Source: an uncultured Acidobacteriaceae bacterium
GTDB taxonomy: Bacteria > Acidobacteriota > Terriglobia > Terriglobales > Acidobacteriaceae
Direction: 5' to 3'
DNA: 64,000 bases
Assembly (NCBI GenBank): GCA_963844905.1
Contig: CAWJQD010000003.1
Coordinates: 14,785-78,784 of the forward strand
Part shown: one piece after another, positions 3,244 to 17,608 of the stretch
Layout of the letters: every line of letters starts with the position of its first letter
Numbering within the stretch: the stretch's first letter is position 1
Position numbers and translations under genes: made by a program
The notes under the pieces: model-generated
Seen by the model: the letters and a program-made list of their open reading frames with translations, nothing else
Told to the model about the DNA's origin: nothing
Database searches by the model: none

Positions 3244-3945
3244 ATGCAAGTCTTTGCCATTCTTCCCGCTGCCGGCCTGGGCACCCGGATGGCCGGCCCG
3301 CAGCCCAAGCAGTTTCTGGCGCTTGATGGTGTCCCCATCCTCATTCATTCGCTGCGCGCCTTTGCCGCGGTGCCGCGCGTGACGGCCATCTATGTGGCCG
3401 TGCGCAAACCGGAGATGGAGCGCGTCGAGACCCAGGTCGCCGAGTACGGCTTCGCCGGACGCGTCCGCGTGGTCGAGGGCGGCGACAAGCGCCAGGAGTC
3501 GGTGGCCAACGCACTCAACGCGCTCCCTGCCCTGCCTGACGACATCGTTCTGGTGCACGACGCCGTGCGTCCGCTCATCGACGCAGCCACCATCGAGCGC
3601 ACCATCGATGCGGTGGCCGAATACGGCGCGGCCATCGTCGGCCTGCCCGCCGTGGACACCATCAAGCAGGTGGAGCGCACCGCTCACGGAGCGCTGATCA
3701 CCGCAACCATTCCGCGCGAGTTTATCGTGCTGGCGCAGACCCCGCAGGGCTTCCGCTTCGGGCTGCTCCAGCGCGCCTTTGCCGAGGCCACCGCGGACGG
3801 CTTTATAGGCACCGACGAAGCCTCGCTCCTGGAGCGCGCCGGCCTTCCCGTAGCCGTCGTTCACGGTTCTCAGGTTAATCTGAAGATTACACAGCCGGGC
3901 GACCTGGAACTGGCCGAGTTCTATCTGCGGAAACGCACGCTCTAG
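3244..3945 (+). CDS. ispD: 2-C-methyl-D-erythritol 4-phosphate cytidylyltransferase
   Basis: AAGLGTRM..PKQFL, RQESV, LVHDAVRP and QTPQGF motifs. Confidence 0.96.
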   Translation: MQVFAILPAAGLGTRMAGPQPKQFLALDGVPILIHSLRAFAAVPRVTAIYVAVRKPEMERVETQVAEYGFAGRVRVVEGGDKRQESVANALNALPALPDDIVLVHDAVRPLIDAATIERTIDAVAEYGAAIVGLPAVDTIKQVERTAHGALITATIPREFIVLAQTPQGFRFGLLQRAFAEATADGFIGTDEASLLERAGLPVAVVHGSQVNLKITQPGDLELAEFYLRKRTL

Positions 3946-4016
3946 AGACGCCCCGATCAAACGGCAGAACAGCGACCGGGACGCCCGACCGTCAGGCACG
4001 GAGATCAAAGCGGATC

Positions 4017-4634
4017 ATGGACACACGCATCGGATTTGGCTATGACTCGCACGAATTCAAGTCCGGCGTGCCGCTGCGCCTCGGCGGCATGACGCTGGAC
4101 CATCCCGAAGGCCTGGCCGGCCACTCGGACGGCGACGTGCTGCTGCATGCCATCACCGACGCACTGCTGGGCGCCGTGGCCGCCGGCGACATCGGCAGTT
4201 TCTTCCCTCCCGGCGATCCGCGCTGGAAGGACGCCGATTCCGCCATCTTTCTCAATCTCGCGCTCGAAGAGCTGCAACACTCCGGCTACCGCATCGTCAA
4301 CATCGACACCACGCTGGTCCTTGCTGCGCCGAAGATTGCGCCCATCGCCGCCGAGATGTGCTCCCGGATTGCCGATCTCCTCGGCATCGGTATCGATCAA
4401 GTGAGCATCAAGGCCAAAACTCCCGAGGGCCTCAACCTGGATCGCGTGGCCCAGTGCCATGCCGTGGCCCTGGTGGAGCGCGTGCAGGAGCCGGAAGAGC
4501 TCAAAAGCATGAGCGAAGTCGTCGAGAGCCAGCGCCAGCTTGAGGACGTGGTCGACGACCTGCTCAGCTCTGTCCACGGCGTGCCCAAAAAGCGCATCAT
4601 CCAGCCCGTCTACGACACCGAGGACATCACCTAA
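4017..4634 (+). CDS. ispF: 2-C-methyl-D-erythritol 2,4-cyclodiphosphate synthase with acidic C-terminal extension
   Basis: RIGFGYDSH, GHSDGDVLLHAITDALLGA and GDIG motifs; follows ispD. Confidence 0.95.
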   Translation: MDTRIGFGYDSHEFKSGVPLRLGGMTLDHPEGLAGHSDGDVLLHAITDALLGAVAAGDIGSFFPPGDPRWKDADSAIFLNLALEELQHSGYRIVNIDTTLVLAAPKIAPIAAEMCSRIADLLGIGIDQVSIKAKTPEGLNLDRVAQCHAVALVERVQEPEELKSMSEVVESQRQLEDVVDDLLSSVHGVPKKRIIQPVYDTEDIT

Positions 4635-5061: not shown

Positions 5062-5119
5062 GCCTCGGAACGCGGTCCGCAAGCGAGCCGTGCTGTAGCA
5101 TCGTGAATAGAACTTGACG

Positions 5120-6613
5120 ATGTTCGACACGACTCCCTCCGCATCTCCGCGCGTCCGTTTTGCGCCCTCGCCCACCGGCTTCCTGCACGTGGGCAGCGCC
5201 CGCACCTTTATCTTCAATTGGCTCTATGCCCGCCATAACCACGGAACCATGGTGTTGCGTCTGGACGACACCGATGTCGAGCGCAACACCGAGGCCAGTC
5301 TCCGGTCCATCTTCGAGGGACTGCGCTGGCTGGGTCTCGGCTGGGACGAAGAGTACAAGCAATCCGAACGCCTCGCCCTGCACCGCCAACAGGCCGAAGC
5401 CGTCTTCTTGAAGGGCCTTGCTTATCGCGACTTCACCCCCGCCCACTCGGGTGACGATATCCAGTCTTCCTCTTCGCAGGGCGCATGGTTGTGCAATCCA
5501 GGTATGCGCGATCTCTCCCGCGAGGAGAGCGACCGGCGCGCCGCCTCGGGTGAGCCGTTCGCTCTTCGCTATCGCGTGCCGCGCGGACACGGCCGGACTT
5601 TGCACTTCACCGATGGCGTTTATGGCGGGCAATCCAAGCTCGCCGACGAGGTGGAGGATTTCGCCCTGCTGCGGTCTGACGGATTGCCCACTTACCACCT
5701 CGCCTCGTGCGCCGACGACGCCGATCTCGGCATCAGCCACATCATCCGCGGCCAGGATCACCTCACCAACACCTTTAAGCACCTGCTCATCTTCGAGGCC
5801 CTCGGCGTCCCGCCGCCCCAGTTCGCACATCTTCCCCTGCTCGTCGCCCCCGATGGCGCCAAACTCTCCAAGCGCCTTCATGGCCCCGTGGTCAGCGTCA
5901 CCACCTATCGTGACGCCGGCTTCCTCCCCCAGGCCTTCGTCAACTTCCTCTGCCTCCTCGGCTGGTCGCCCAAAGACGACCGCCAGTTCCTTACTGTCGA
6001 CGAGCTTGTTGGCGCTTTCACTCTCGAAGGCGTCAACCGCGCCAACGCCGTAGTCAATTTTTCTGAAACAGCCTTGAGCTCTTCGGATTTCGCGCCATTC
6101 GATCCCAAAGCCGTCCATCTTAACGGCGAGCATATCCGCGCCCTGCCTATCGCCGAGCTCAGCCCCCTCCTCCAGCCCTTCTTTGAGCAGGCCGGTTTCC
6201 ATCCCTCGCCGGAAAAGCTCCTCGCCGTCGCCCCGCTCATCCGCGAGCGCATAAAACTCCTCAAGGACGCCGTCTCCGCCGCCGACTTCTTCTTTCTCGA
6301 TCAGCTCGCTCCCTACGATCCCGCCGAGCTGATTCCTAAAAATGGCGATGCCGCGCTCGCCCGCCGCGTGCTCCAACACGCCGAGCAGGTCCTCGCCACC
6401 ACCCCTTTCGATCACGATTCGTTGGACCAAGCCCTGCGCCAGGCCGCCGACCAGCTCGGCCTCAAGGCCGGTCAAATGTTTCAGCCCATCCGCGTCGCCG
6501 TGTGCGGACGCAAGAACGCGCCGCCGCTCTTTGAAACCATGGCCGTCCTCGGCCGCGACGTTTGCCTCGCCCGCATCCGCCAGGCCGAAGAAAGCCTGCA
6601 ATCGCTCGGTTGA
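5120..6613 (+). CDS. gltX: Glutamate--tRNA ligase
   Basis: [19 protein letters not shown] (HIGH), [13 protein letters not shown] (KMSKS) and an anticodon-binding C-terminus. Confidence 0.95.
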
Positions 6614-6671
6614 CTACAGAACCATCCGTACACCGGGCGCGGCGAGCGGCCCTCGGCTTGAGGCGCGGGCG

Positions 6672-6713
6672 GTTTCATCCTGGGCCCCAAAAGGCGGGGC
6701 CTGGGGCGCCCGC
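6672..6713 (-). repeat. REP-like palindrome, family A (GGG-N-GCCCCA / hairpin / TGGGAGAG type)
   Basis: Reverse complement gcgggcgccccaggccccgccttttggggcccaggatgaaac resembles the copies at 8066, 12072, 12244, 26813, 58608 and 61092. Confidence 0.6.
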
Positions 6714-6760
6714 ATCATTTGCCAACGATCACGATGCGTAAAATCGGCTAGAGGTCCCAG

Positions 6761-7483
6761 ATGAACGACGAATCATTCGTCTTGTACAAATTCAGAGCGA
6801 TCAATAAACACCTGATCGAATCTTTGGTTAGCCAAAGCCTATATTTCGCCAGGCCCGACGCCCTGAACGACCCGTTCGACTGCCAAATCGATCTAAAAGC
6901 TGCCCTCAAACGAGCCGAATCGTCCGCCGCTGGCGACCGAAAGAGTCTTCTCTCGTCATTTTTAGGCAATCAGAAATTTTTCGATAATTGGAAATCTGTA
7001 GTCGATAATTTCGGCGTGTGTTCGTTCTCAAGAGAGAATCGGGATACACTGCTATGGTCACGTTATGCCGACGAGCACAGGGGCGTGTGCCTAAAATACC
7101 AATTCCGAGAGTCCTATTTCTTAACTGACGAATTCCAGTTTGCTGCTGCGGGTGACGTTGAGTACCTCGATGAGCCACTGACGGAGTGGCTGAAAAACGC
7201 GCCTACAGATATGGAGGATTTCGTTATAGGACTTATTCATAAGTACCTTAAAACAAAAAGCCTTGCTTGGAAGTACGAAAAGGAAGCGAGAATAATTCGA
7301 CGCGAACATGGCGTTTTCAAATTCAGCGAGCCAGTCTTGAATCAGGTCTGTTTCGGCTTACAAACGCCGGACGACGACATTAAACTCATTAAAGATTTGG
7401 CTCGGACGTACGCCGGTTGCACTGGGTTCAGTCAGATGGTCCGCGACGAAACAGAATTCGGATTTACGGAGAAAGCGCTATAA
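6761..7483 (+). CDS. DUF2971 domain-containing protein (accessory, AT-richer than flanks)
   Basis: LYKFR, LNDPFDC, LWSRYADEHRGVCL and K..AWKYEKEAR match the DUF2971 signature pattern. Confidence 0.8.
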   Translation: MNDESFVLYKFRAINKHLIESLVSQSLYFARPDALNDPFDCQIDLKAALKRAESSAAGDRKSLLSSFLGNQKFFDNWKSVVDNFGVCSFSRENRDTLLWSRYADEHRGVCLKYQFRESYFLTDEFQFAAAGDVEYLDEPLTEWLKNAPTDMEDFVIGLIHKYLKTKSLAWKYEKEARIIRREHGVFKFSEPVLNQVCFGLQTPDDDIKLIKDLARTYAGCTGFSQMVRDETEFGFTEKAL

Positions 7484-7502
7484 GCACGAATAGGGTCGGC
7501 TG

Positions 7503-8063
7503 GTGGGCCAGCGCTTGGCCGACCAAGGCCGGCTGGGACGCCGGCCCCCAGCCAAGGGGAGATTCCAGGTGAGACTTTCCATTGAGCAACTTCTCTACGA
7601 CCCCTGCGAGGGTCTCAACGACGACCCAACACCGCCTACTCACGTTCGCGAATGCTATGAAATCCTCGCAGGCCCTATGGTAAATCTTCCAATTCAAATC
7701 CAATGGAACAACGAGAGAATGGCTAAGGCCAAAGAGATAGTAGCTAGAGCCGATGAGAGAATAGCTAAGGCCAATGGGAGAAGAGCTAACACCAGTGGGA
7801 AACTGTCTAAAACCAGCCAGAGGGTAGTCAAAGCCAATGAGAGGATAGCTGAGGCCAATAAGAGAATAGCTGAGGCCAAAGCTTACCTTTGCGACGCCGT
7901 CGAACGGTGTAAGGCCACATACGGCGAAGCTGATACTGTCGTCGCCTTTGAGGCTCTTTTGGAAAAGCTGGGCACTCCAGCCATGAGTTGCCGAGAAAGC
8001 GGGGATCCCCGTAAGTCCGCACTTTTGCCGGCGGGTGACCTAAGTGTGACCACCTTAAAATGA
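7503..8063 (+). CDS. Hypothetical coiled-coil protein with 8 tandem heptads (start uncertain)
   Basis: 21-bp tandem repeats at 7713-7880 encode ERMAKAK/EIVARAD/ERIAKAN/.../KRIAEAK in frame. Confidence 0.55.
   Translation: MGQRLADQGRLGRRPPAKGRFQVRLSIEQLLYDPCEGLNDDPTPPTHVRECYEILAGPMVNLPIQIQWNNERMAKAKEIVARADERIAKANGRRANTSGKLSKTSQRVVKANERIAEANKRIAEAKAYLCDAVERCKATYGEADTVVAFEALLEKLGTPAMSCRESGDPRKSALLPAGDLSVTTLK
7713..7880 (+). repeat. 8 x 21-bp imperfect tandem repeat (consensus gagagaatagctaaggccaat)
   Basis: Units are directly readable starting at 7713 and every 21 nt up to 7860. Confidence 0.9.
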
Positions 8064-8065
8064 AT

Positions 8066-8110
8066 GGGTGCCCAGGTCCGGATTTTTGGACCTGGGAGAG
8101 TATCAACCTC
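8066..8110 (+). repeat. REP-like palindrome, family A
   Basis: gggtg-cccaggtcc-ggattttt-ggacctggg-agagtatcaacctc, a perfect 9-bp stem. Confidence 0.75.
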
Positions 8111-8124
8111 CCGCGCGGCTGATA

Positions 8125-8221
8125 TTGAGCGCAGCCCTTCCGTGAAATAATTAACCATAATCATGAGCAACGGAAATTCGGAATGCACGGAAACCCGCAC
8201 CCCTTCCAACTTCCTCCGCGA
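8125..8221 (+). pseudogene. Relic 1 of the glnS 5' end and upstream region
   Basis: ATG 8163 gives MSNGNSECTETRTPSNFLRD. aacttcctccgcga is identical to glnS 10163-10176, and cagcccttccgtgaaa is shared with relic 2. Confidence 0.7.
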
Positions 8222-8277
8222 TGCAACGCGCCGCGACGCATATTTATGGCGTCTGGGGGTGGCGACGCATTTTCCTG

Positions 8278-8832
8278 CTAGTTCTTCGTTGCGCTTGGCT
8301 TAGCCTTTACAAACTTCGCTTCCCAGAAGGGTGTCCACGTATCCCCGTCGGTCGAGAATTCACCCTTAGACGTGCCACTCATGAAGTCTGGCGTGCATAC
8401 GAATGTCTCCCGGTACTGATAAATCATTCCTTTAATTTCCAACGGGCCCGCCCAAACAAACGTGTTTCCCGAGATCGTCAACGTTCCCGAGTATCTGCTC
8501 CCATCCGACTGGTACCAGTCCGTGTCGAACTCCTTGTTTACAGGGTCGTATGATACGATGCCGATCACGTGCAACTCTCCCGCGCCGATTTTTTCGCTCT
8601 CTTCCACCTGCAGGAAAAAACCGCCCAGGATCGTGTGTGCGTCCCAGACGCCTTTGACTTTACCTCCGCCGCCCAGCGGTCCGGGCTTGTACTCTCCTTC
8701 GTACGTCCAATGTCCGACCAGCCCATTCAATTCCTTCAGTTCGGAATCAGGCTTGTGAAAGCTTGTTTGGGCTCGTAGCGGGGCAACGAGGCAAATGACG
8801 ATCAGCGATAACAGAAGACTGGTTCGTTGCAT
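8278..8832 (-). CDS. DUF1579 family secreted protein
   Basis: ATG 8832 with GGAGG RBS, a signal peptide (MQRTSLLLSLIVICLVAPLRA), and LVGHW...LGGFFLQ...SYDPVNK. Confidence 0.75.
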   Translation of the reverse strand: MQRTSLLLSLIVICLVAPLRAQTSFHKPDSELKELNGLVGHWTYEGEYKPGPLGGGGKVKGVWDAHTILGGFFLQVEESEKIGAGELHVIGIVSYDPVNKEFDTDWYQSDGSRYSGTLTISGNTFVWAGPLEIKGMIYQYRETFVCTPDFMSGTSKGEFSTDGDTWTPFWEAKFVKAKPSATKN

Positions 8833-9023
8833 GGCCTTCCTCCTTAGCTGATACGGCGCGGCAAATACGTCAAAGTGTGCGCAACTCGACAAGCGGCAGC
8901 GGCTCTTCCGTGAGGCAAAAGGGATTATAGCGCCTCCACCCATGCTACTGCGTTGCAAGCCAAACTGGGACCCATGGCGGTATAGTGCAGGAACGAGCGG
9001 CCGCATTCATCCATTACCAGTTG

Positions 9024-9268
9024 TTGAGCGCAGCTGCTCGGTTAAGCACAGCCCTTCCGTGAAAGAATATGGAAAAAGGCAGTTATGGCAACCCCAAATC
9101 CGGAAAGCCCGGACGTTCGCGCTATCGACGCTCGCATTCCCTCCAACAACTTCCTCCGCGACGTGATCGCCGAGGATGCGCACACCAGAAAGTTCCGCGA
9201 CGCCCAAATCCAGACGCGCTTTCCACCCGAGCACAACAGCCATCGTCATGCCAGGGCAAGATCATCGA
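9024..9268 (+). pseudogene. Relic 2 of the glnS 5' end and upstream region
   Basis: ATG 9085 gives ...[33 protein letters not shown], against gln[34 protein letters not shown]. The HIGH motif region is deleted or degraded. Confidence 0.9.
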
Positions 9269-9324
9269 AAAGTAGGAAATGGAGACAACTCCTCTTATCT
9301 CCCTCGAAGCCCTATGATTAGGTC

Positions 9325-9999
9325 ATGAAGAGTCCGATGGCAAAAATGTGGCTCAAGCTTGTCGTAACTCTGGTTCTTATGGGATTCGCTTTGTTCCTTG
9401 CGGCGGGGACTTTCAATTATTGGCAGGCGTGGATTTTTCTCGGAGTAGGCGGCGTAGCAAACGTCCTTCTCAACCTCTCCATGATAAGAAACCCGGCGCT
9501 TCTTGAAAACAGGAGCAAGTGGGGGCCGGCGGCAGAGAAACGAACCACCCAAAAGATCATCCTTTTATGCGCGATGATCCCGGCCTTCGCCACGTTTATT
9601 ATTCCCGCGCTTGACCGTCGTTTCGGCTGGTCAAACGTGCCTTATTGGCTTTCCATAGCGGGCTTCCTCTTGATCCTGACCGGCCTGCGGATGGTATTCA
9701 TCGTGTTCAAAGCAAACTCCTTCGCCTCCGCAACCATCGAGATCGTCAATCATCAAAAGGTGATTTCTACTGGTCCGTACGCCATCGTGCGGAACCCGAT
9801 GTATGCCAGTGCGGTAGTGTACTTGATTGCGACACCTCTGGCGCTAGGTTCCTATTGGGGGCTCATTGCGGCCATCCTCACGGTCCTCGGCTTCGTTTGG
9901 CGGCTCTTCGACGAAGAAAAACTCCTTGCTCAAGATTTGCCCGGCTATACGGAATATTGTGCCAAAGTGCATTGGCACCTGATCCCGGGTGTTTTCTGA
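9325..9999 (+). CDS. Isoprenylcysteine carboxylmethyltransferase (ICMT/PEMT) family membrane protein
   Basis: Multiple TM helices plus HQKVISTGPYAIVRNPMY and EE..L...LPGYTEY motifs. Confidence 0.88.
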   Translation: MKSPMAKMWLKLVVTLVLMGFALFLAAGTFNYWQAWIFLGVGGVANVLLNLSMIRNPALLENRSKWGPAAEKRTTQKIILLCAMIPAFATFIIPALDRRFGWSNVPYWLSIAGFLLILTGLRMVFIVFKANSFASATIEIVNHQKVISTGPYAIVRNPMYASAVVYLIATPLALGSYWGLIAAILTVLGFVWRLFDEEKLLAQDLPGYTEYCAKVHWHLIPGVF

Positions 10000-10117
10000 C
10001 GTTTGGATTCGGTTCGGATCCTGAATCGAACACACGCCCTCACGTTAAAAAATCCGTTTGATTATCTCAATAATTTGCGAACACAAAGCTGCGGCAGTTG
10101 AGTTAGGAATCGCACCA

Positions 10118-11824
10118 ATGACCAAGACGAACTCGGAAAGTCAGGGCAATCTTACTCACACGAACTTCCTCCGCGACATCATCGCCGAGGATGTCCGCAC
10201 CAAAAAGTTCCGCGACGCCCAAATCCAGACCCGCTTTCCTCCCGAGCCCAACGGCTACCTCCACATCGGCCACGCCAAGGCCATTTGCATCGACTTCGGC
10301 CTCGCCGACGAGTTCGGCGGCAAGACCAACCTGCGCTTCGACGACACCAATCCCGAGAAGGAAGAGACGGAGTACGTCGAATCGATCATGGCCGACGTGC
10401 GCTGGCTGGGCTTCGATTGGGACCGCCTCTGCTACGCCTCCGACTACTTTGGCCAGCTCTACGAGTGGGCTTTGCAGCTCATCAAAGCCGGCAAGGCCTA
10501 CGTCGACGACCTCAGTGCCGACGAGATTCGCCAGCACCGCGGCACGCTCACCGAGCCCGGACGGGACAGCTCCTTTCGCAACCGGTCAGTCGAAGAGAAT
10601 CTTGACCTGTTTACCCGCATGAAGCAGGGCGAGTTCCCCGACGGCAGCCGCGTCCTCCGCGCCAAAATCGACATGGCCTCGCCCAACCTCAACATGCGCG
10701 ATCCCGTGATGTACCGCATCCTGCATGCGACGCACCATCGCACCGGCGACGAGTGGTGCATCTACCCCATGTACGACTACGCCCACGGCCAGTCCGACTC
10801 CATCGAGCAAGTCACCCACTCCATGTGCACGCTCGAATTCGCCGACCACCAGCCCCTCTACAAGTGGTATATTGCCCAGCTCGGAATCTTTCCCTCCGAG
10901 CAAATCGAATTCGACCGCCTCAACCTCACCTACACCATTCTCTCTAAACGGAAGCTACTGCAGCTGGTGAACGAAAAGCATGTGAACGGCTGGGACGATC
11001 CGCGCATGCCCACCCTCTCCGGCATTCGCCGCCGCGGCTTTACCCCCGAGGCCATCCGCGCCTTCTGCGCGCAGATCGGCGCCTCGCGCACAAATGGGGT
11101 CACGGATATCGAGATGCTCGAGCACTTCCAGCGCGACGACCTCAACCGCCGCTCTTCCCGCGCCATGGCCGTCCTGCACCCCCTCAAGCTAGTCATCGAC
11201 AACTACCCCGAGGGCAAAGAGGAATCTGTGGAAGTGGCCAACAACCCCGAAGACCCCTCCGCTGGAACGCGCCAGGTGCCCTTTTCCCGCGAGCTCTACA
11301 TCGAGCAGGATGATTTCCGCGAGACTCCTCCGCCCAAGTACTACCGCCTCTCTCCCGGCAAGGAGGTCCGCCTTCGCAACGCCTACTTCGTCACCGCCCA
11401 GCGCGTGGTCAAAGACGCGGCCGGCAACATCGTCGAAGTCCACTGTACCTATGATCCGGCCAGCCGCGGCGGCAACTCGCCCGACGGCCGCAAGGTGAAG
11501 TCCACCATGCACTGGGTCTCGATCTCCCACGCCATCTCCGCCGAAATCCGTCTCTACGACAAGCTCTTCTTGAAGGCCGATCCATACGACATAGCGGAAG
11601 GCGAGGACGTCCTCTCGAATCTCAACCCCAACTCCCTCGAGATCCTCCGGGGCGCAAAGCTTGAGCCCTCTCTCGCCGGCGCCAAACCCGGCGACCGCTT
11701 CCAGTTCGAGCGGGTCGGCTACTTCTGCCTCGATCCCGACTCGGCTCCGGGCAAGCTGGTGTTCAACCGGACGCTGCCGCTGAAAGACACTTGGGCGAAG
11801 ATCGAGAAGAAGGCGGGCGCGTAG
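10118..11824 (+). CDS. glnS: Glutamine--tRNA ligase
   Basis: [39 protein letters not shown] and FQFERVGYF; ATG at 10118. Confidence 0.97.
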
Positions 11825-11858
11825 GGTATACTTGCTCCGAATTTCGAGGACTGACCAA

Positions 11859-12041
11859 ATGGCTGATCAAATCAAAGCGGGCGATGTCGTTGTCCTGAAG
11901 TCTGGCGGACCAGATATGACTGTCAAATGGGTTAACGGATCAGAATGTTACTGCGAGTGGTTCGACGGGAAAAAAGTAATAGGAGGGTCCTTCGATACCA
12001 TTCAACTTCGCTCAAATGAAGAAAGTCCAAGGGATCGCTGA
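11859..12041 (+). CDS. YodC/DUF2158 family small protein
   Basis: IKAGDVVVLKSGGPDMTV...CEWFDG pattern; GAGG RBS before ATG 11859. Confidence 0.8.
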   Translation: MADQIKAGDVVVLKSGGPDMTVKWVNGSECYCEWFDGKKVIGGSFDTIQLRSNEESPRDR

Positions 12042-12071
12042 GGCATGCGGTCCAATTCTCAGAGGCGCCCG

Positions 12072-12126
12072 CGTGCCCCATCTTTCGCGCGTTTTTTTGC
12101 ACGAAGGGGTGGGAGAGCAAGGACCT
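12072..12126 (+). repeat. REP-like palindrome, family A
   Basis: cgtgccccatctttcgcgcgtttttttgcacgaaggggtgggagagcaagg. Confidence 0.7.
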
Positions 12127-12149
12127 AGACGACTGTGCCTTCGTCAGGC

Positions 12150-12220
12150 CCGGCACCCTCGCCTTCAACCGCACCCTCCCCCTCAAAGACACCTCGGCAG
12201 GGATTTAGAAGAAGGCGGGC
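12150..12220 (+). pseudogene. Relic of the glnS 3' end
   Basis: Translates [23 protein letters not shown], against the glnS C-terminus [24 protein letters not shown] (11746-11818). Confidence 0.88.
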
Positions 12221-12243
12221 AGCTGCTCAGCGGCTGGTTTACG

Positions 12244-12287
12244 TTTGTGCTCTCTCGCGTCTCAAGGCTGGGACGCTGGGCCACCCG
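12244..12287 (-). repeat. REP-like palindrome, family A (inverted relative to the 12072 copy)
   Basis: Reverse complement gggtggcccagcgtcccagccttgagacgcgagagagcacaaac shares both flanks with the other copies. Confidence 0.6.
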
Positions 12288-12331
12288 GCGTTGGGCTCGG
12301 AATGCACTGCGGGTCCGTCAGGAGCAATTCG

Positions 12332-13414
12332 GTGGAACTTTGCGTTTTTAAATTCAACCATGTAATTCACTGGAAGCTCTCCCCATCGGACCCGTTGCTT
12401 TACGACATTCAACCATACCCAGGGGTTCGGCTCGTTGCACCGCTGCTCTTCCCTGGCATCGAAGGTCTGATGGACGCCAAGCGAGCCGACGCAGAAGGCC
12501 TCAATTCCGAAAGCTATATTGGGCCCTTATGCCTGATCGAGACTGACGGGATTGCGTTCTCCATAGATGACGCACATGTCGCCCAGTACAAGCCCAAAGA
12601 CGTCGCTCGGTTTGCGTGCTTTAGATCCGACAGTCCCCCGCTGGATGCCGTCCTCACTCTTCTTCTAAATGCCCTAAGACATTTCAGCAAACAGGCGGAC
12701 TTGCCAACGAGCCCCGACGACGTCAACATTTGGGAATGGCTGAACCCGCCCGAGATGCCGACTATCGGAGCCCCACGCTCGAGCAAACTGATTCGGGCCG
12801 TTGCCAAATCAATTGTAGAAACAGCTATCACAAGAAAACACATTGAATCTGCGTGCAGCTGCGGCTCGGACTTCAGCGCTCCTATCTTCGACACACTAAT
12901 GCTCGACGCTATCAGCGCCCACGCTTCGCACGACTACCGAAAATCGATTCTGTACTCGGCAATTGCCGTAGAATCGGCGGCCTCGATTGTGTTGGAGGAC
13001 CAATTTGAGAAACACGTGCAAATGTCCGACTCGCCAAATTGGCGTGTAGTTGAAATCCCGCAATCGGGAGGAAAGGTAGTCCGGAAAGACCCCATCTGGT
13101 CCTACCTAAGAAGACGGGAAGACGCCAACGCGCTCCTGCATGAGGGTGCCCTCTACGTTTTAGGACGTTCGCTGATGCTCGAAAACGATCCCCTATACCA
13201 ACTCATGGAGCGTCTGAGGTCGACTCGAAACAAAATCGTTCATCTTGGCGAGCCGCCTGAGCAGAACCCAAGCCAATATTTGTCAATTGACCAACAGGGC
13301 TCTTCGGACGCTCTAAATTGCGCGAATGAAGTGCTCAACTGGTTAGGCGTGGGCAACGAATACAAGCTTCATGAAAGCGGGCTGGTCAATGTCTCAAATG
13401 CTCCAACAGAATAG
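12332..13414 (+). CDS. Hypothetical protein with a C-terminal HEPN-like Rx4H motif
   Basis: GTG 12332 follows AGGAG; SAIAVESAA helix and RNKIVH at 13226-13243; AT-richer than the host genes. Confidence 0.65.
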   Translation: MELCVFKFNHVIHWKLSPSDPLLYDIQPYPGVRLVAPLLFPGIEGLMDAKRADAEGLNSESYIGPLCLIETDGIAFSIDDAHVAQYKPKDVARFACFRSDSPPLDAVLTLLLNALRHFSKQADLPTSPDDVNIWEWLNPPEMPTIGAPRSSKLIRAVAKSIVETAITRKHIESACSCGSDFSAPIFDTLMLDAISAHASHDYRKSILYSAIAVESAASIVLEDQFEKHVQMSDSPNWRVVEIPQSGGKVVRKDPIWSYLRRREDANALLHEGALYVLGRSLMLENDPLYQLMERLRSTRNKIVHLGEPPEQNPSQYLSIDQQGSSDALNCANEVLNWLGVGNEYKLHESGLVNVSNAPTE

Positions 13415-13474
13415 AAGTCCAGTCGGCTTCCCCAGGCCTCGCTTCTGAGCAAGGGGATCTCCGCACACTCCCGC

Positions 13475-13867
13475 TTACGGAATCAGATACGCCCCCGGAA
13501 TCCCCTCGTCCAGCGTCGCCAGAACCGCTCCATTCGCGCTTGCCAGTTGCACGAGATGGCCGTCCGTGGTCTGCGCCGGGCTTTTTGCCCACTTCGGCAA
13601 GAATGAAATGTCATTCCCGTCGTTTATGAATTCGAGCGGGAACTCTTTCCACGCCTTCAGTTCCTGCAATAGGGATTTTGCGTGTGCCACGTCCATGCCG
13701 TAGGTTCGAACATTCCCAAGCACGCGAACGAATCCAAGCTCGGTGATAGAACATGTCAGGAAGCGATCGCCCTTTCGGGATCGAATCCAGGCGCCAACCC
13801 GATCGTGGAAATCATGCTGCCTGAATCCATAGGCGATGAGCGCGTTGACGTCCAGAAGGTACCTCAT
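13475..13867 (-). CDS. vapC: PIN domain (VapC) toxin
   Basis: YLLDVNALIA, ITELGFVR, TTDGHL and LATLDEG provide the acidic PIN residues. Confidence 0.9.
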   Translation of the reverse strand: MRYLLDVNALIAYGFRQHDFHDRVGAWIRSRKGDRFLTCSITELGFVRVLGNVRTYGMDVAHAKSLLQELKAWKEFPLEFINDGNDISFLPKWAKSPAQTTDGHLVQLASANGAVLATLDEGIPGAYLIP

Positions 13868-14124
13868 GGAAAGTCAACGAGCAGTTCTCGGACCATCTTG
13901 CTGGTCAGAATCGGCGCATCAGGGCCCAGGTCAATCACCGGAAAACCCGTGATGGGGTCTTTAATGATTCTGGCCTTGGAGCGCGTCCCCTTTTTGGGGG
14001 CTGTCAGAACAATCCGATCCTTCTCGATGGCAATATCGAGTGGATCGCCGGCGCGGAGGCCCAGCCTGCGGCGCAGCGGCGTGGGGATCACGATCTGGCC
14101 TTTGGTGGAAACCCGGGTCTGCAT
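13864..14124 (-). CDS. AbrB/MazE/SpoVT family antitoxin (VapB-type)
   Basis: TRVSTKGQIVIP..LRRRLGLRAGD swapped-hairpin motif; 4-nt overlap with the PIN gene. Confidence 0.9.
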   Translation of the reverse strand: MQTRVSTKGQIVIPTPLRRRLGLRAGDPLDIAIEKDRIVLTAPKKGTRSKARIIKDPITGFPVIDLGPDAPILTSKMVRELLVDFP

Positions 14125-14144
14125 GGTAAGACGATCTTACCATG
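14122..14144. promoter_or_regulatory. Perfect inverted repeat, candidate vapBC autoregulatory operator
   Basis: catggtaaga-cga-tcttaccatg has 10-bp arms and overlaps the antitoxin start codon. Confidence 0.65.
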
Positions 14145-14192
14145 AAATCGCCTTGCGGAGAACATGACCCGGTTCGCCGGTCTTCCCGCCTG

Positions 14193-14702
14193 CTACTTTC
14201 CCACCACATCGATCGGCACGTCGATTGTCTTCGGCGGCAGGCACTGGTTCTGGTCGCAGGCCTGGTAGCGCAGCTTGCCCTGCACCAGGTGATGGCCCGG
14301 CGTAGCCACAATCTGCGCCTGAATCACGAACTCGCCGGTATACACGCTGAGCTTGGTCGTGGGATCGGCGGGCAGCGCCATGACCGTCCCCGCCGGATAG
14401 GCCGCGGCATTCAGCCGCACGCCCATGCCGTCAGGGATCGAAAACGTTGTCGCAATCAGGAATTCGTCGCCGGGCGTGTGCGAATTGATGTGCAGCCCCT
14501 GCGCGACGCGGAAGTGCAGCGCTACCGGGCTCGCCTTGCCCGCGGGAACACTCACCTGCGCGGGAAACAGATACTGCACCGCATCCGTCTTGACGATGGA
14601 GCGATTTTGCGCGGCCGCCGGAATTACCTGCCCCCGGCCCGCCACCGCTCCCAGCGCCAAAACCGCAACCGCCGCAATACATTGCTTCTTCATCTTGACC
14701 AT
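14193..14702 (-). CDS. DsbD N-terminal (Ig-like) domain protein
   Basis: Signal peptide, VAQGLHINSH, YPAG and LRYQACDQNQCLPPK (C-x4-C); adjacent to TlpA. Confidence 0.8.
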   Translation of the reverse strand: MVKMKKQCIAAVAVLALGAVAGRGQVIPAAAQNRSIVKTDAVQYLFPAQVSVPAGKASPVALHFRVAQGLHINSHTPGDEFLIATTFSIPDGMGVRLNAAAYPAGTVMALPADPTTKLSVYTGEFVIQAQIVATPGHHLVQGKLRYQACDQNQCLPPKTIDVPIDVVGK

Positions 14703-14794
14703 CGACCTCAAGTCTTGGGCTTTCCTTTTCGCCTCGCTGGGGCGCCCGCTCCAACTCCGCTAACTCCGCTAACACCGTTAACTCGCTGACTCCC

Positions 14795-15445
14795 TCACTC
14801 CCCCAGCGCCTTCCTGATGTTCCCCTCGATGTCGCTCTCTGACGTCAACCCCACCTGCGCCGCCACGACCTTCCCCTCGCGGTCCACAAAGAACGACGCG
14901 GGCAAATCGTCCAGCCCGCCGTAGTCGCGGCTGATGCTGTCGCCGTCCAGCAGCACCGGGTACGGAACTTTCATCTCCGTCACGAACTTGCTCGCGTTGG
15001 CTTGTTCCTTCTCCCATCCGGCCTTGTCGCTCTTCTCAAGGTCGTCGCCTTCGGTGTCCACGCCCAGCACTTCGAAGCCCTGCGCCGCATACTTGTTGCG
15101 CAGCTCGATCAGCCACGGCGTCTCCACCTTGCACGGACCGCACCACGTCGCCCAGAAGTTGATCAGCACGGCCTTGCCCCGATAGTTCTCGAGCGAAACC
15201 TTCTTACCGCTCAGGTCGTCGAGCGCAAACGCCGGTGCCGGCTTGCCGTTGAGCGGAGAAACGTATTGCAGTGTGTCACCCCCGGGAACAGGCACCAGCT
15301 CGCCTTGTGCGGCCCCGGCCAGCAAGCGCTCGGCGGCCTGCTGGCGATACTCCCAGTTGGCCCACCCCGCCCAGGCAAAGATGGCCAGAATCGCAAGCAC
15401 AGCGGTAAGAACCAGCGTGTTGCGACGCACCGGGAAGGACTTCAT
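14795..15445 (-). CDS. TlpA-type thiol:disulfide oxidoreductase
   Basis: N-terminal TM anchor, APAFALDDLSGKKVSL, NFWATWCGPC and LPASFFVDREG. Confidence 0.9.
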   Translation of the reverse strand: MKSFPVRRNTLVLTAVLAILAIFAWAGWANWEYRQQAAERLLAGAAQGELVPVPGGDTLQYVSPLNGKPAPAFALDDLSGKKVSLENYRGKAVLINFWATWCGPCKVETPWLIELRNKYAAQGFEVLGVDTEGDDLEKSDKAGWEKEQANASKFVTEMKVPYPVLLDGDSISRDYGGLDDLPASFFVDREGKVVAAQVGLTSESDIEGNIRKALGE

Positions 15446-15620
15446 GGCTCCATTGTACGAGCCTGAGCGATGAGCAAAGAACCGCACAGAGTGCCCGGCC
15501 GCTGCCGCTCGTCGTTCTCCGTTCCCTCTTCCCTATTCCTTTGTCCCTTGTTTCCTCGCTCGCTAGTCCCTACGTCCCTAATCCCTACGTCCCGGCCTTT
15601 GCTGTTACCATCAAAAGCCA

Positions 15621-16628
15621 ATGACCAAGCCCAACCCCAACGATCGCGAACCAAGCGCCTCTGGCCCCGCAGATCTGGTCCGCACCGAGGCCGCCGCGCT
15701 CGAAGCCCTCGCCGCCCGCCTCGACGGGCCCATGTCAGAACCGTTCAGCCGCGCTGTCGAAATGATCCTCCATTGCGGCGAGTCCCACGGCCGAGTGGTG
15801 GTCACCGGCATGGGCAAGAGCGGCATCATCGCGCAAAAAATCGCCGCCACGCTCAGCTCCACGGGCTCTCCGGCACTGTTCCTTCATCCGGCCGAGGCGG
15901 TCCACGGCGACCTGGGTGTTTTGATGCCCGGCGACGTGGTCATTGCCCTCTCGGCCAGCGGCGAAACCGAGGAGATCCTGCGCCTGCTGGCCACGCTCAA
16001 GCGCAAGGGCGACGCGCTCATCAGCTTCTGCTGCAACCTGCGGTCGACCCTGGCGCAGGCCAGCGACGTGGCTCTCGATTGCTCCGTCGAGCGCGAAGCC
16101 TGCGGGCTGAACCTTTCGCCCACGGCCTCCACCACCGCCATGCTGGCACTGGGCGACGCCCTCGCCGTCGCCGTCAGCCTGCGCAAGGGTTTCCGCGCCG
16201 AGGATTTCGCCGAGCTGCACCCCGGCGGCAAGCTTGGCAAGCAACTCGCCAAGGTCCGCGACCTGATGCACACCGGTGAAGACGTCCCAGCCGTCGCGCC
16301 ATCCACGCCCATGGCCGATGTGATCTTCGAGATGTCGTCCAAAAAGCTCGGCATCACGACAGTTCAGGACGCTGGCCTCTTGCGCGGCGTAATTAGCGAC
16401 GGTGATCTCCGCCGCTTGCTCGAGCGCGAGGGCGGCGCTGCGCTCAGCAAGACGGCGGGCGAAGCGATGAACGCGAATCCGCGCACCATCGGCGGTGAAG
16501 AACTGGCCGCTAAAGCGCTGGCCATCCTCGAAGAGCGCAAGATTACGTCGCTCATCGTCGTCGATGCCGATCAGCACGTCGAAGGCGTGGTGCATCTGCA
16601 CGATCTTTGGGGCGTGGAGTTGATTTGA
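15621..16628 (+). CDS. kdsD: KpsF/GutQ family arabinose-5-phosphate isomerase (SIS + CBS)
   Basis: VTGMGKSG, HPAEAVHGDLG, PTASTT, HPGGKLG and two CBS domains. Confidence 0.88.
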   Translation: MTKPNPNDREPSASGPADLVRTEAAALEALAARLDGPMSEPFSRAVEMILHCGESHGRVVVTGMGKSGIIAQKIAATLSSTGSPALFLHPAEAVHGDLGVLMPGDVVIALSASGETEEILRLLATLKRKGDALISFCCNLRSTLAQASDVALDCSVEREACGLNLSPTASTTAMLALGDALAVAVSLRKGFRAEDFAELHPGGKLGKQLAKVRDLMHTGEDVPAVAPSTPMADVIFEMSSKKLGITTVQDAGLLRGVISDGDLRRLLEREGGAALSKTAGEAMNANPRTIGGEELAAKALAILEERKITSLIVVDADQHVEGVVHLHDLWGVELI

Positions 16629-16714
16629 AAAAGAGGTAGACAGTTTGAAAAGATGCGCGGTGACCTCGGACTGAATCCGATCGCGAAAAGCGAACAAGGC
16701 TGAAAGGGGGTTGC

Positions 16715-17608
16715 ATGGGGAGGTGCCACTATTGTGGAGCGTGGGCCGGACTATTCAAGCACGCACACCCCGGTTGTGAGGAGGCGCATGTCCAGGAAGA
16801 GAATGCTCGCCAGGCACGGGAGCGCGAAGAATCAGATAAGGTGAACCAAATATGCTCTCTAATCTCATCTGCGCCCGATGGACATGTCTCTGTTGATGAG
16901 CTTGCCGGCCTCATTGCGCCGATCGCCCCGGAGGGGAGCGGACTCATTTGGCAATCGCTCTGTGCATGGGTAAAGAAGCTTGCAGTAGGCACGGACGACC
17001 ATCCTTTCCCAACCCCAGAAGAAGAAGCGCTACTGACGGCAATTTGCAAGCATTACGGGTTCAAAGGCACCGACCTCCCTGACAATACATGGGATCGTAT
17101 CGTCAGGTGCTGCGCAGCAAGGGACCTTCAGGAGGGGAAGATTCCTGACCGCGTACAAGTCGCGGGAGATCTCCCATTCATTCTCGAAGCCGCCGAGCGC
17201 GTTGTATGGCTGTTTTCCAATGCTGAATATTTGGAGGACCGCGTCGTTCATGCATCGGTCCGCCCTTACGCCGGAATCAGCGTTCGCGTCGTCTCCGGAC
17301 TGTACCTGCACACTGGCGGGTTAGGGCGGTTGCCAGATCAGGAGGGATTTGTCCTAGTTGATTCAGGCTTGCTTGCTCTGACGGATCAGGCGATTCTCTT
17401 CCATGGCACGCACAAATCGCTGCGGCTGAGGTTCCGCGATCTCGTGTCAATTGATCGATACGACTGTGGTTTTGCGGTGTGCAAAGGGACGCAGAGCGCC
17501 CGCAACCAAGGCTTCCAGGCACAGGATGTGTTCCCTGGCTTCCCGTACCTGCTTGCAAGAGAACTGAGCCGGCTTGCGGCGGAATCCGCGGCAAAGCCCC
17601 GTCATTAA
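16715..17608 (+). CDS. Hypothetical accessory protein (N-terminal CxxC; C-terminal PH-like LALTDQAILF segment)
   Basis: 297-aa ORF with lower GC, sitting between kdsD and proS; MGRCHYCG start. Confidence 0.6.
   Translation: MGRCHYCGAWAGLFKHAHPGCEEAHVQEENARQAREREESDKVNQICSLISSAPDGHVSVDELAGLIAPIAPEGSGLIWQSLCAWVKKLAVGTDDHPFPTPEEEALLTAICKHYGFKGTDLPDNTWDRIVRCCAARDLQEGKIPDRVQVAGDLPFILEAAERVVWLFSNAEYLEDRVVHASVRPYAGISVRVVSGLYLHTGGLGRLPDQEGFVLVDSGLLALTDQAILFHGTHKSLRLRFRDLVSIDRYDCGFAVCKGTQSARNQGFQAQDVFPGFPYLLARELSRLAAESAAKPRH

Follow-up and report, generated by a model that had tools for sequence, protein, structure and literature searches.

Introduction

Integrative islands insert into the ends of genes, such as the 3′ ends of tRNA genes or the 5′ end of dusA, and carry a replacement for the end into which they insert. 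DNA that is homologous to its target on one side only reportedly also integrates in experiments, at a low rate; the natural footprints of such one-sided integration have been documented mostly at toxin loci. At the rhs, cdiA and T6SS effector loci, C-terminal displacement is accompanied by orphan 3′ ends and arrays of immunity genes, and homology-facilitated illegitimate recombination has been proposed to explain the T6SS/Rhs orphan 3′ ends (PMC5361080; PMC3150448). Cassettes are also known from the minimal mobile elements of Neisseria and from recombination hotspots between core genes (PMC3787668; PMC1797815).

The locus described here, the glnS gene of a soil acidobacterium, resembles each of these systems in part. 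As at rhs, cdiA and the T6SS loci, the conserved part of a gene would serve as an anchor, an incoming end with its cargo would replace the resident end, and the old end would be left downstream as an orphan fragment that retains a stretch of homology; in both cases arrays would be built by repeated events, and no recombinase is involved. Unlike those loci, the anchor is not a polymorphic toxin but a housekeeping gene, essential and with ends of equivalent function, it has been hit at both its 5′ and its 3′ end, and its cargo consists of unrelated small genes (YodC-like, orphan, methyltransferase and DUF1579) and not of immunity genes. With minimal mobile elements the locus has in common that one site, bounded by the same conserved genes, is filled by alternative cassettes in near-identical strains, that there are no mobility genes, that the borders lie at the ends of the flanking genes and that homologous recombination would take place in the flanks. 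Replacement of that kind leaves no duplicated gene ends, unlike what is seen at glnS, and the displaced gene ends found there (referred to below as relics) therefore need an additional, one-sided event. As with integrative islands, the incoming DNA supplies an end that keeps the gene intact, and the old one comes to lie on the far side; unlike them, the glnS locus has no integrase and no identical att core at a consistent position, its displaced segment measures 0.4 kb and its cut points vary. The kind of event is already known. What is new is a housekeeping gene hit at both ends, inside a hotspot of cassette swapping.

Results

The glnS gene and its setting

The window, by which is meant the whole 64-kb stretch of DNA that was analysed, comes from a Terracidiphilus-like acidobacterium. 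Its glnS gene (10118–11824, + strand) is intact and encodes a glutamine–tRNA ligase (GlnRS) of 568 amino acids, which aligns over residues 36–561 with the curated equivalog model TIGR00440 at 728.9 bits (cut-off 425.8) and is a full-length member of that family. The most similar GlnRS proteins, from Terracidiphilus metagenome-assembled genomes (MAGs), are 87% identical in amino acid sequence, and the protein cluster of the window GlnRS at 90% identity has a single member, itself. In relatives gltX lies immediately 5′ of glnS, and dsbD_N/tlpA are found downstream at a variable distance. The GC content of glnS is 0.62; that of the two islets that flank it, at 6.6–10.1 kb and 11.8–14.1 kb, is around 0.53. 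The islets contain a DUF2971 gene, a gene for a repeat protein, a DUF1579 gene, an ICMT-family methyltransferase gene, a YodC-like DUF2158 gene, an orphan gene and a vapBC pair. No gene or domain of a recombinase, integrase or transposase was found between 6.6 and 14.2 kb, a region that takes in both islets, and a literature search gave nothing relevant on glnS as an integration site for islands.

Some of the islet genes are of interest in themselves. The match of the DUF2971 protein (6761–7483) is to PDC-S31, a candidate defence family in PADLOC (E = 4e-41); with a gene of this type on one side and vapBC on the other, the flanks of glnS resemble small defence or toxin–antitoxin islets. The open reading frame at 7503–8063 contains around seven tandem repeats of 21 nt (7 amino acids) at 7694–7899, and a homologue that is 78% identical lies directly upstream of glnS in the related locus L001.

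In a sliding comparison the body of glnS is closest to L001 and L004 (84% overall). Two segments, 10328–10460 and 10643–10780, are most similar to L038 (0.90–0.93), and the remainder is closest to L001, L003 and L004. The gene is thus a mosaic in general, beyond its tail.

The 3′ tail of glnS differs from the gene body

At four-fold degenerate sites the body of glnS has C 197 times and G 44 times; from 11741 to the stop codon the counts are C 2 and G 12 (Fisher p = 3e-7 against the body), with codons such as CGG ACG CTG CCG CTG. Position 11741 is the maximum-likelihood change point of the codon profile along the gene, and it agrees well with the first-pass annotation of this DNA, which had set a G-ending tail of the last ~27 codons against a C-ending body. 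None of the 21 other high-GC3 open reading frames in the window has a shift between tail and body below p = 0.03, so the switch, which is unique among the 22, is not normal gene-end variation. The identity to L005 and L007, whose glnS genes are G3-rich throughout, rises from 0.61–0.73 in segments starting at 11543–11633 to 0.88 in the tail, and the identity to L001, the best match for the body, falls from 0.84 to 0.79. Because codon usage shifts and the nearest relatives switch from L001/L004 to L005/L007, the present tail is foreign to the gene body; glnS is an intact gene with an end of other origin than its body. The recombinant tail is taken to run from 11729 to 11824 (+), as the alleles in the population diverge from 11729.

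A relic of a C-ending tail lies behind yodC

Part of the functional tail (11747–11818, +) is repeated downstream, at 12149–12220 (+), as a 72-nt direct repeat of 75% identity (local blastn E = 6e-9; tblastn E = 4e-7). The longest identical run of the two copies is 14 nt, AGAAGAAGGCGGGC, at the distal end of both, and apart from the glnS-end relics, 5′ and 3′, the 64-kb window has no dispersed direct repeats of 45 nt or more. The downstream copy uses C-ending codons (CGC ACC CTC CCC CTC); its four-fold sites, with C 12 and G 3, are like those of the body (p = 0.74), and the earlier description of a relic whose codons match the body of glnS is therefore correct. It contains an in-frame stop and the changes W>S and K>G, and both the final codon and the native stop are gone. 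Third codon positions hold 12 of the 18 differences between tail and relic, so each copy diverged while it was part of a working gene, in a lineage of its own, and not by local duplication followed by decay.

The relic-type tail sequence includes CTCGCCTTCAACCGCACCCTCCCCCTC. Over its first 45 nt the relic is most similar to L001, a C-rich relative (84%), and functional C-type tails that are 94% identical to the relic core over 36 nt exist in co-occurring strains (X10 contig). Since independent short-read contigs from X1 (12163–12386) and X2 (12094–12281) cover it, together with spacer and downstream sequence, and have no mismatch, the relic is not an assembly artefact. It descends from a genuine C-ending functional tail of glnS. 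The proposal that it is the native tail of this very gene is upheld to that extent but not further, as C-ending tails are common in relatives and C-ending codons do not prove nativeness.

A pattern scan of the genome collection found no relic-type tail that forms a functional gene end, and the sequence after the relic has nothing in common with the regions downstream of glnS in relatives. Among 80 glnS loci, copies of the tail were found in the window and in L052 only. The latter, from an Ignavibacteriota MAG, is a plain tandem duplication of ~300 nt at 3850–4330, 93% identical, that comprises the last ~50 codons of glnS and downstream sequence. A joint of 11743 to 12158 in X5/X7 was considered as a possible pre-insertion form and was rejected, as it belongs to a distant glnS homologue.

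When the JGI metagenomes were scanned for the relic-type tail, the only find was another displaced relic, in L161/L162 (contigs Ga0182018_10102341 and Ga0209908_10027676, merged to 2428 nt). Here an internal fragment of glnS (amino acids 244–262) is followed by higB in truncated form and by higA; then come a glnS tail that is C-ending and has its stop, a DUF5677 gene and vapC. The first 33 nt of this displaced tail are identical to the window relic at 31 of 33 positions.

Two displaced heads lie upstream of glnS

The first-pass annotation had further stated that the 3′ end mirrors an array at the 5′ end, and two glnS heads are indeed displaced upstream of the gene. Relic A (8125–8221, +) comprises the glnS leader, the start codon and the head up to NFLRD, and stands after the 7503–8063 gene as the corresponding sequence does in L001. 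Relic B (9024–9268, +) comprises a leader with start codon and a head, of which 9148–9240 are 89% identical to 10163–10255 (93 nt); the similarity decays beyond. An ICMT/PEMT-family methyltransferase gene and the leader of the current glnS head follow at 9325–10117 (+), in an arrangement syntenic with L004. The contexts are thus syntenic with different relatives, that of relic A being of the L001 type and that of the current head of the L004 type. A 2845-nt contig from X3 covers 6526–9370, and with it both 5′ relics, with no mismatch. Each of the three relics is truncated at another point (NFLRD, PPEHN, and PG of the tail), so there is no fixed cut site, and at both ends of glnS an older, truncated and decaying gene end lies beyond the cargo.

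This region also varies between strains. Another strain, in X3, has a different insert, of 1380 nt, between the end of gltX and glnS (window 6619–10163), which rejoins the window exactly at 10163, the start of the conserved NFLRD block. In the leader of relic A, at 8102–8207, the sequences of X2 and X10 are not those of the window.

The cassette between glnS and vapC

The sequence that follows glnS, cassette K1 (11826–13429, +; 1604 nt, GC 0.54), consists of yodC, a spacer, the relic and an orphan gene. The small YodC-like protein (DUF2158; 11859–12041, +; 60 amino acids) has a GAGGA ribosome-binding site upstream and belongs to PF09926, with 47.8 bits against a gathering score of 22.3; no record of the exact protein was found. 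A terminator scan found no terminator-like site between glnS and yodC. The spacer (12042–12148, +) has no homology to glnS and meets the relic at its right end. Directly 3′ of the relic there is a terminator-like hairpin with a T-rich run (12220–12236, +), the folding energy of which is no better than that of shuffled sequences; the search for RNA families gave no Rfam match and no fold better than shuffles. The orphan gene (12302–13414, +) encodes 370–389 amino acids, depending on a start between 12245 and 12302, and has neither a family match nor relatives in the genome contigs searched. At 13210–13240 (LRSTRNKIVHLGE) it contains an R-x4-H motif of the HEPN-like kind, which, with no family-model match, is a lead only. 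The conserved right flank (13430–14124, − strand) is common to all haplotypes and carries vapC (PIN, 13475–13867) and vapB (MazE/AbrB, 13864–14124).

Of the yodC loci in the genome collection the closest, L081 and L082 (69–73% amino acid identity), have nothing in common with the window beyond the open reading frame itself, and their flanks are unrelated.

Tails and cassettes in the population

The species of the window is contained in the metagenome runs X1, X2 and X3, and four forms can be told apart. In addition a 684,759-bp ENA contig, L163, is identical to the window over 5118–11825 (1 mismatch) and 13430–16760 (2 mismatches), which makes the flanks 99.98% identical. It has the same G-ending tail and then an unrelated cassette of 1668 nt (L163 6709–8376) with two unknown genes, of 111 and 308 amino acids, that replaces 11826–13429; yodC and the relic are both missing. 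The borders between the window and the L163 cassette are sharp, with no shared letters. Shorter contigs of this haplotype, termed H2, come from X1 (1907 nt, depth 7.3) and X3 (2054 nt, depth 8.3); they have the G-ending tail with one difference (11782), continue into unrelated sequence after 11825 and rejoin the window at 13430, and their full form is that of L163.

In another haplotype, H3 (X1, depth 5.0; X2, depth 4.3), a yodC cassette identical to that of the window stands after a third tail allele, tail′, and is followed by a diverged right flank (13435–13559). This allele has 13 substitutions between 11729 and 11818, contains FCVDPDSVPGHLVFNRTLALKDSW, and is G-leaning too (C 6, G 9; p = 7e-4 against the body). 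Further alternative continuations are found at 11817–11825, 13430 and 13476 in X3, X4 and X10. A single population thus holds three tail alleles of glnS, and the short-read contigs link them to cassettes: tail′ with yodC, and the G-ending tail with the other cassette. Replacement of a whole cassette between conserved flanks is directly visible in near-identical genomes (window and L163; X1/X3), with different cassettes at one site and borders at the ends of the flanking genes, as at minimal mobile elements.

An octamer, CCACCTGC, stands directly after the glnS stop codon in L004, L009, L011, L163 and the X3/X4 contigs, where the sequences farther downstream differ. It is missing after the window's own glnS stop.

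These haplotypes speak against one part of the earlier interpretation, according to which the present tail had arrived together with yodC. L163, a close relative, and the X1/X3 contigs carry the G-ending tail without yodC, which is the case that the first-pass annotation had named as its own refutation, and in X1/X2 yodC follows the other tail allele. Nor was a donor found: none of 80 yodC loci in the genome collection has a glnS–yodC junction.

The junction of tail and yodC in the window

It is most likely that the G-ending tail and the yodC cassette are not an original pairing, and that the window owes it either to a later swap or to the consensus of two strains. The simplest reading is that two strains were collapsed into one sequence; the alternative may be a real but unusually precise swap. 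The former we regard as somewhat the better bet: the flanks would come from a dominant strain (G-ending tail, other cassette) and the cassette from a minor one (tail′, yodC). In the alignable flanks the window is equal to L163 (H2) up to a distance from the cassette of 7 nt on the left and 5 nt on the right, and inside the cassette it is equal to the yodC haplotype of X1/X2, which differs from the window at 13 positions of the tail and at at least 12 positions in 13435–13505. Both strains are found together in X1, at depths of 7.3 and 5.0. Neither of the window-specific junctions is present in any contig, the two junction words sampled are in no indexed run, and position 11782 of the window bears the letter of the other strain. 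Against this, a real strain with the pairing of the window may exist in a run that is not indexed. Even if the strains have been collapsed, both the relic and a foreign tail exist in reality, in the tail′ haplotype.

Discussion

The best reading of the locus, and the one towards which we incline on balance, is that ordinary cassette replacement and terminal displacement have both acted at the ends of glnS. The gene stands between two low-GC islets, the small accessory genes of which pass between related Terracidiphilus-like strains. Ordinary replacement is directly visible here: the whole cassette between glnS and vapC is swapped by homologous recombination in the conserved flanks. As the left crossover falls inside the last ~100 nt of glnS, each swap can import a new tail, and the codon usage and nearest relatives of the tail therefore differ from those of the body.

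The relics, we infer, arose by one-sided homologous anchoring in glnS, that is, by terminal displacement. Occasionally, incoming DNA that is homologous on the glnS side only would pair within glnS and bring its own gene end and cargo (here a tail and yodC), and its far end would be joined illegitimately inside the resident gene end. glnS would stay intact, the resident tail would be pushed downstream as a non-functional fragment (12149–12220), and the same process at the 5′ end would have left the two displaced heads. Relics may accumulate beside glnS because the gene is essential and only products in which it is intact survive.

Several lines of evidence point this way. The tail is set apart from the body by its codons (p = 3e-7, in one of 22 open reading frames) and by the switch of nearest relatives, and it differs from the relic mostly at third positions (12/18), while functional C-type tails 94% identical to the relic core co-occur in other strains. 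The cassette swap is seen directly between the window and L163 (1604 against 1668 nt), alternative junctions recur at 11817–11825, 13430 and 13476 in X3, X4 and X10, and tail alleles are linked to cassettes in short-read contigs. The 6.6–14.2 kb region lacks a recombinase gene, the three relics are truncated at different points, and relic A and the current head have synteny of the L001 and the L004 type respectively. L161/L162 provide an independent case, and the same model has been proposed for the orphan 3′ ends of T6SS/Rhs loci (PMC5361080). On the other side, the search of 80 yodC loci yielded no donor, and a pre-displacement haplotype, with the glnS body, a relic-type tail and the orphan gene, was not found. 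The relic is without its last codon and stop, a loss that calls for at least one small event more. The event would also be rare, given that among 80 glnS loci a tail copy is present only in the window and, as a tandem duplication, in L052.

The main rival to terminal displacement, which we consider unlikely, is that the relic came from the glnS tail of a donor and entered as a fragment along with the orphan gene downstream. The vapC side would have been the anchor of the incoming DNA; the other end of this DNA, which lay within the donor's glnS, would have been joined illegitimately behind yodC, and the foreign working tail would be the product of a separate recombination. The relic-bearing cassette does move as a unit, and, C-ending tails being common in relatives, the codons of the relic do not prove it native; moreover GCC-TTC (Ala-Phe) is common to the relic and the L161 relic, and the tabulated tails of relatives have Val/Ile-Phe. 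This reading requires two events, however, against one for displacement. All three relics in the window are ends of glnS and none is from gltX or vapC, which points to glnS as the anchor, and 5′ relic A retains its native upstream synteny.

It is rather improbable that glnS ends serve in Acidobacteriota as a dedicated site at which capture recurs, with precise exchange at fixed borders (stop+1 on the left and 13430 on the right) by a mechanism so far unrecognised that does without a recombinase in cis. On such a view, and with as little likelihood, precise exchange would really have produced the window's combination of H2 flanks and H3 cassette and would have left the displaced ends as its footprints.

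More doubtful still, to the point of being very improbable, is a site-specific element or cassette system (with a tyrosine or serine recombinase, integron-like or Tn7-like) that targets the 3′ end of glnS, the tail and the relic being attL and attR. Sharp cassette borders do recur at stop+1 and 13430, and the 14-nt identical run AGAAGAAGGCGGGC ends both repeat copies. Yet neither islet has a recombinase or transposase, the segment between the repeats is only 402 nt, and the joint has neither a target duplication nor shared letters. Had a crossover taken place in the 14-nt run, the C-ending part would belong to the element and the host gene would have no stop. No border motif is common to the two cassettes, and the 5′ relics are cut at different codons.

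Particular forms of such a system were also taken up as candidates and rejected: an integrative element with attL/attR, for want of an integrase gene and of an identical core placed so as to restore the host gene; an integron, for want of genes, core or target duplication; and a Tn7-like insertion, for want of transposition genes, of shared letters at the joint and of inverted repeats bounding the cassette.

Local tandem duplication of the gene end with divergence in place (the ~300-nt duplication in the Ignavibacteriota locus L052 demonstrates that one including the glnS tail is possible), chance similarity and normal codon drift at a gene end are scarcely credible, being contradicted by the unrelated sequence downstream of the two copies, by systematic C-to-G changes at third positions in the copy under selection, by E-values of 1e-7 to 1e-9, and by a codon shift found in no other open reading frame.

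In metagenome assemblies of mixed strains, a gene end and the cassette next to it may stem from different strains, and codon-based inferences as to what arrived with what therefore need linkage at the level of reads. For the organism itself, glnS bears footprints at both ends of an essential housekeeping gene. With several haplotypes of the same species present in metagenomes, the build-up of accessory genes beside core genes, here a candidate defence gene, a toxin–antitoxin pair and orphan genes beside glnS, becomes readable almost stepwise.
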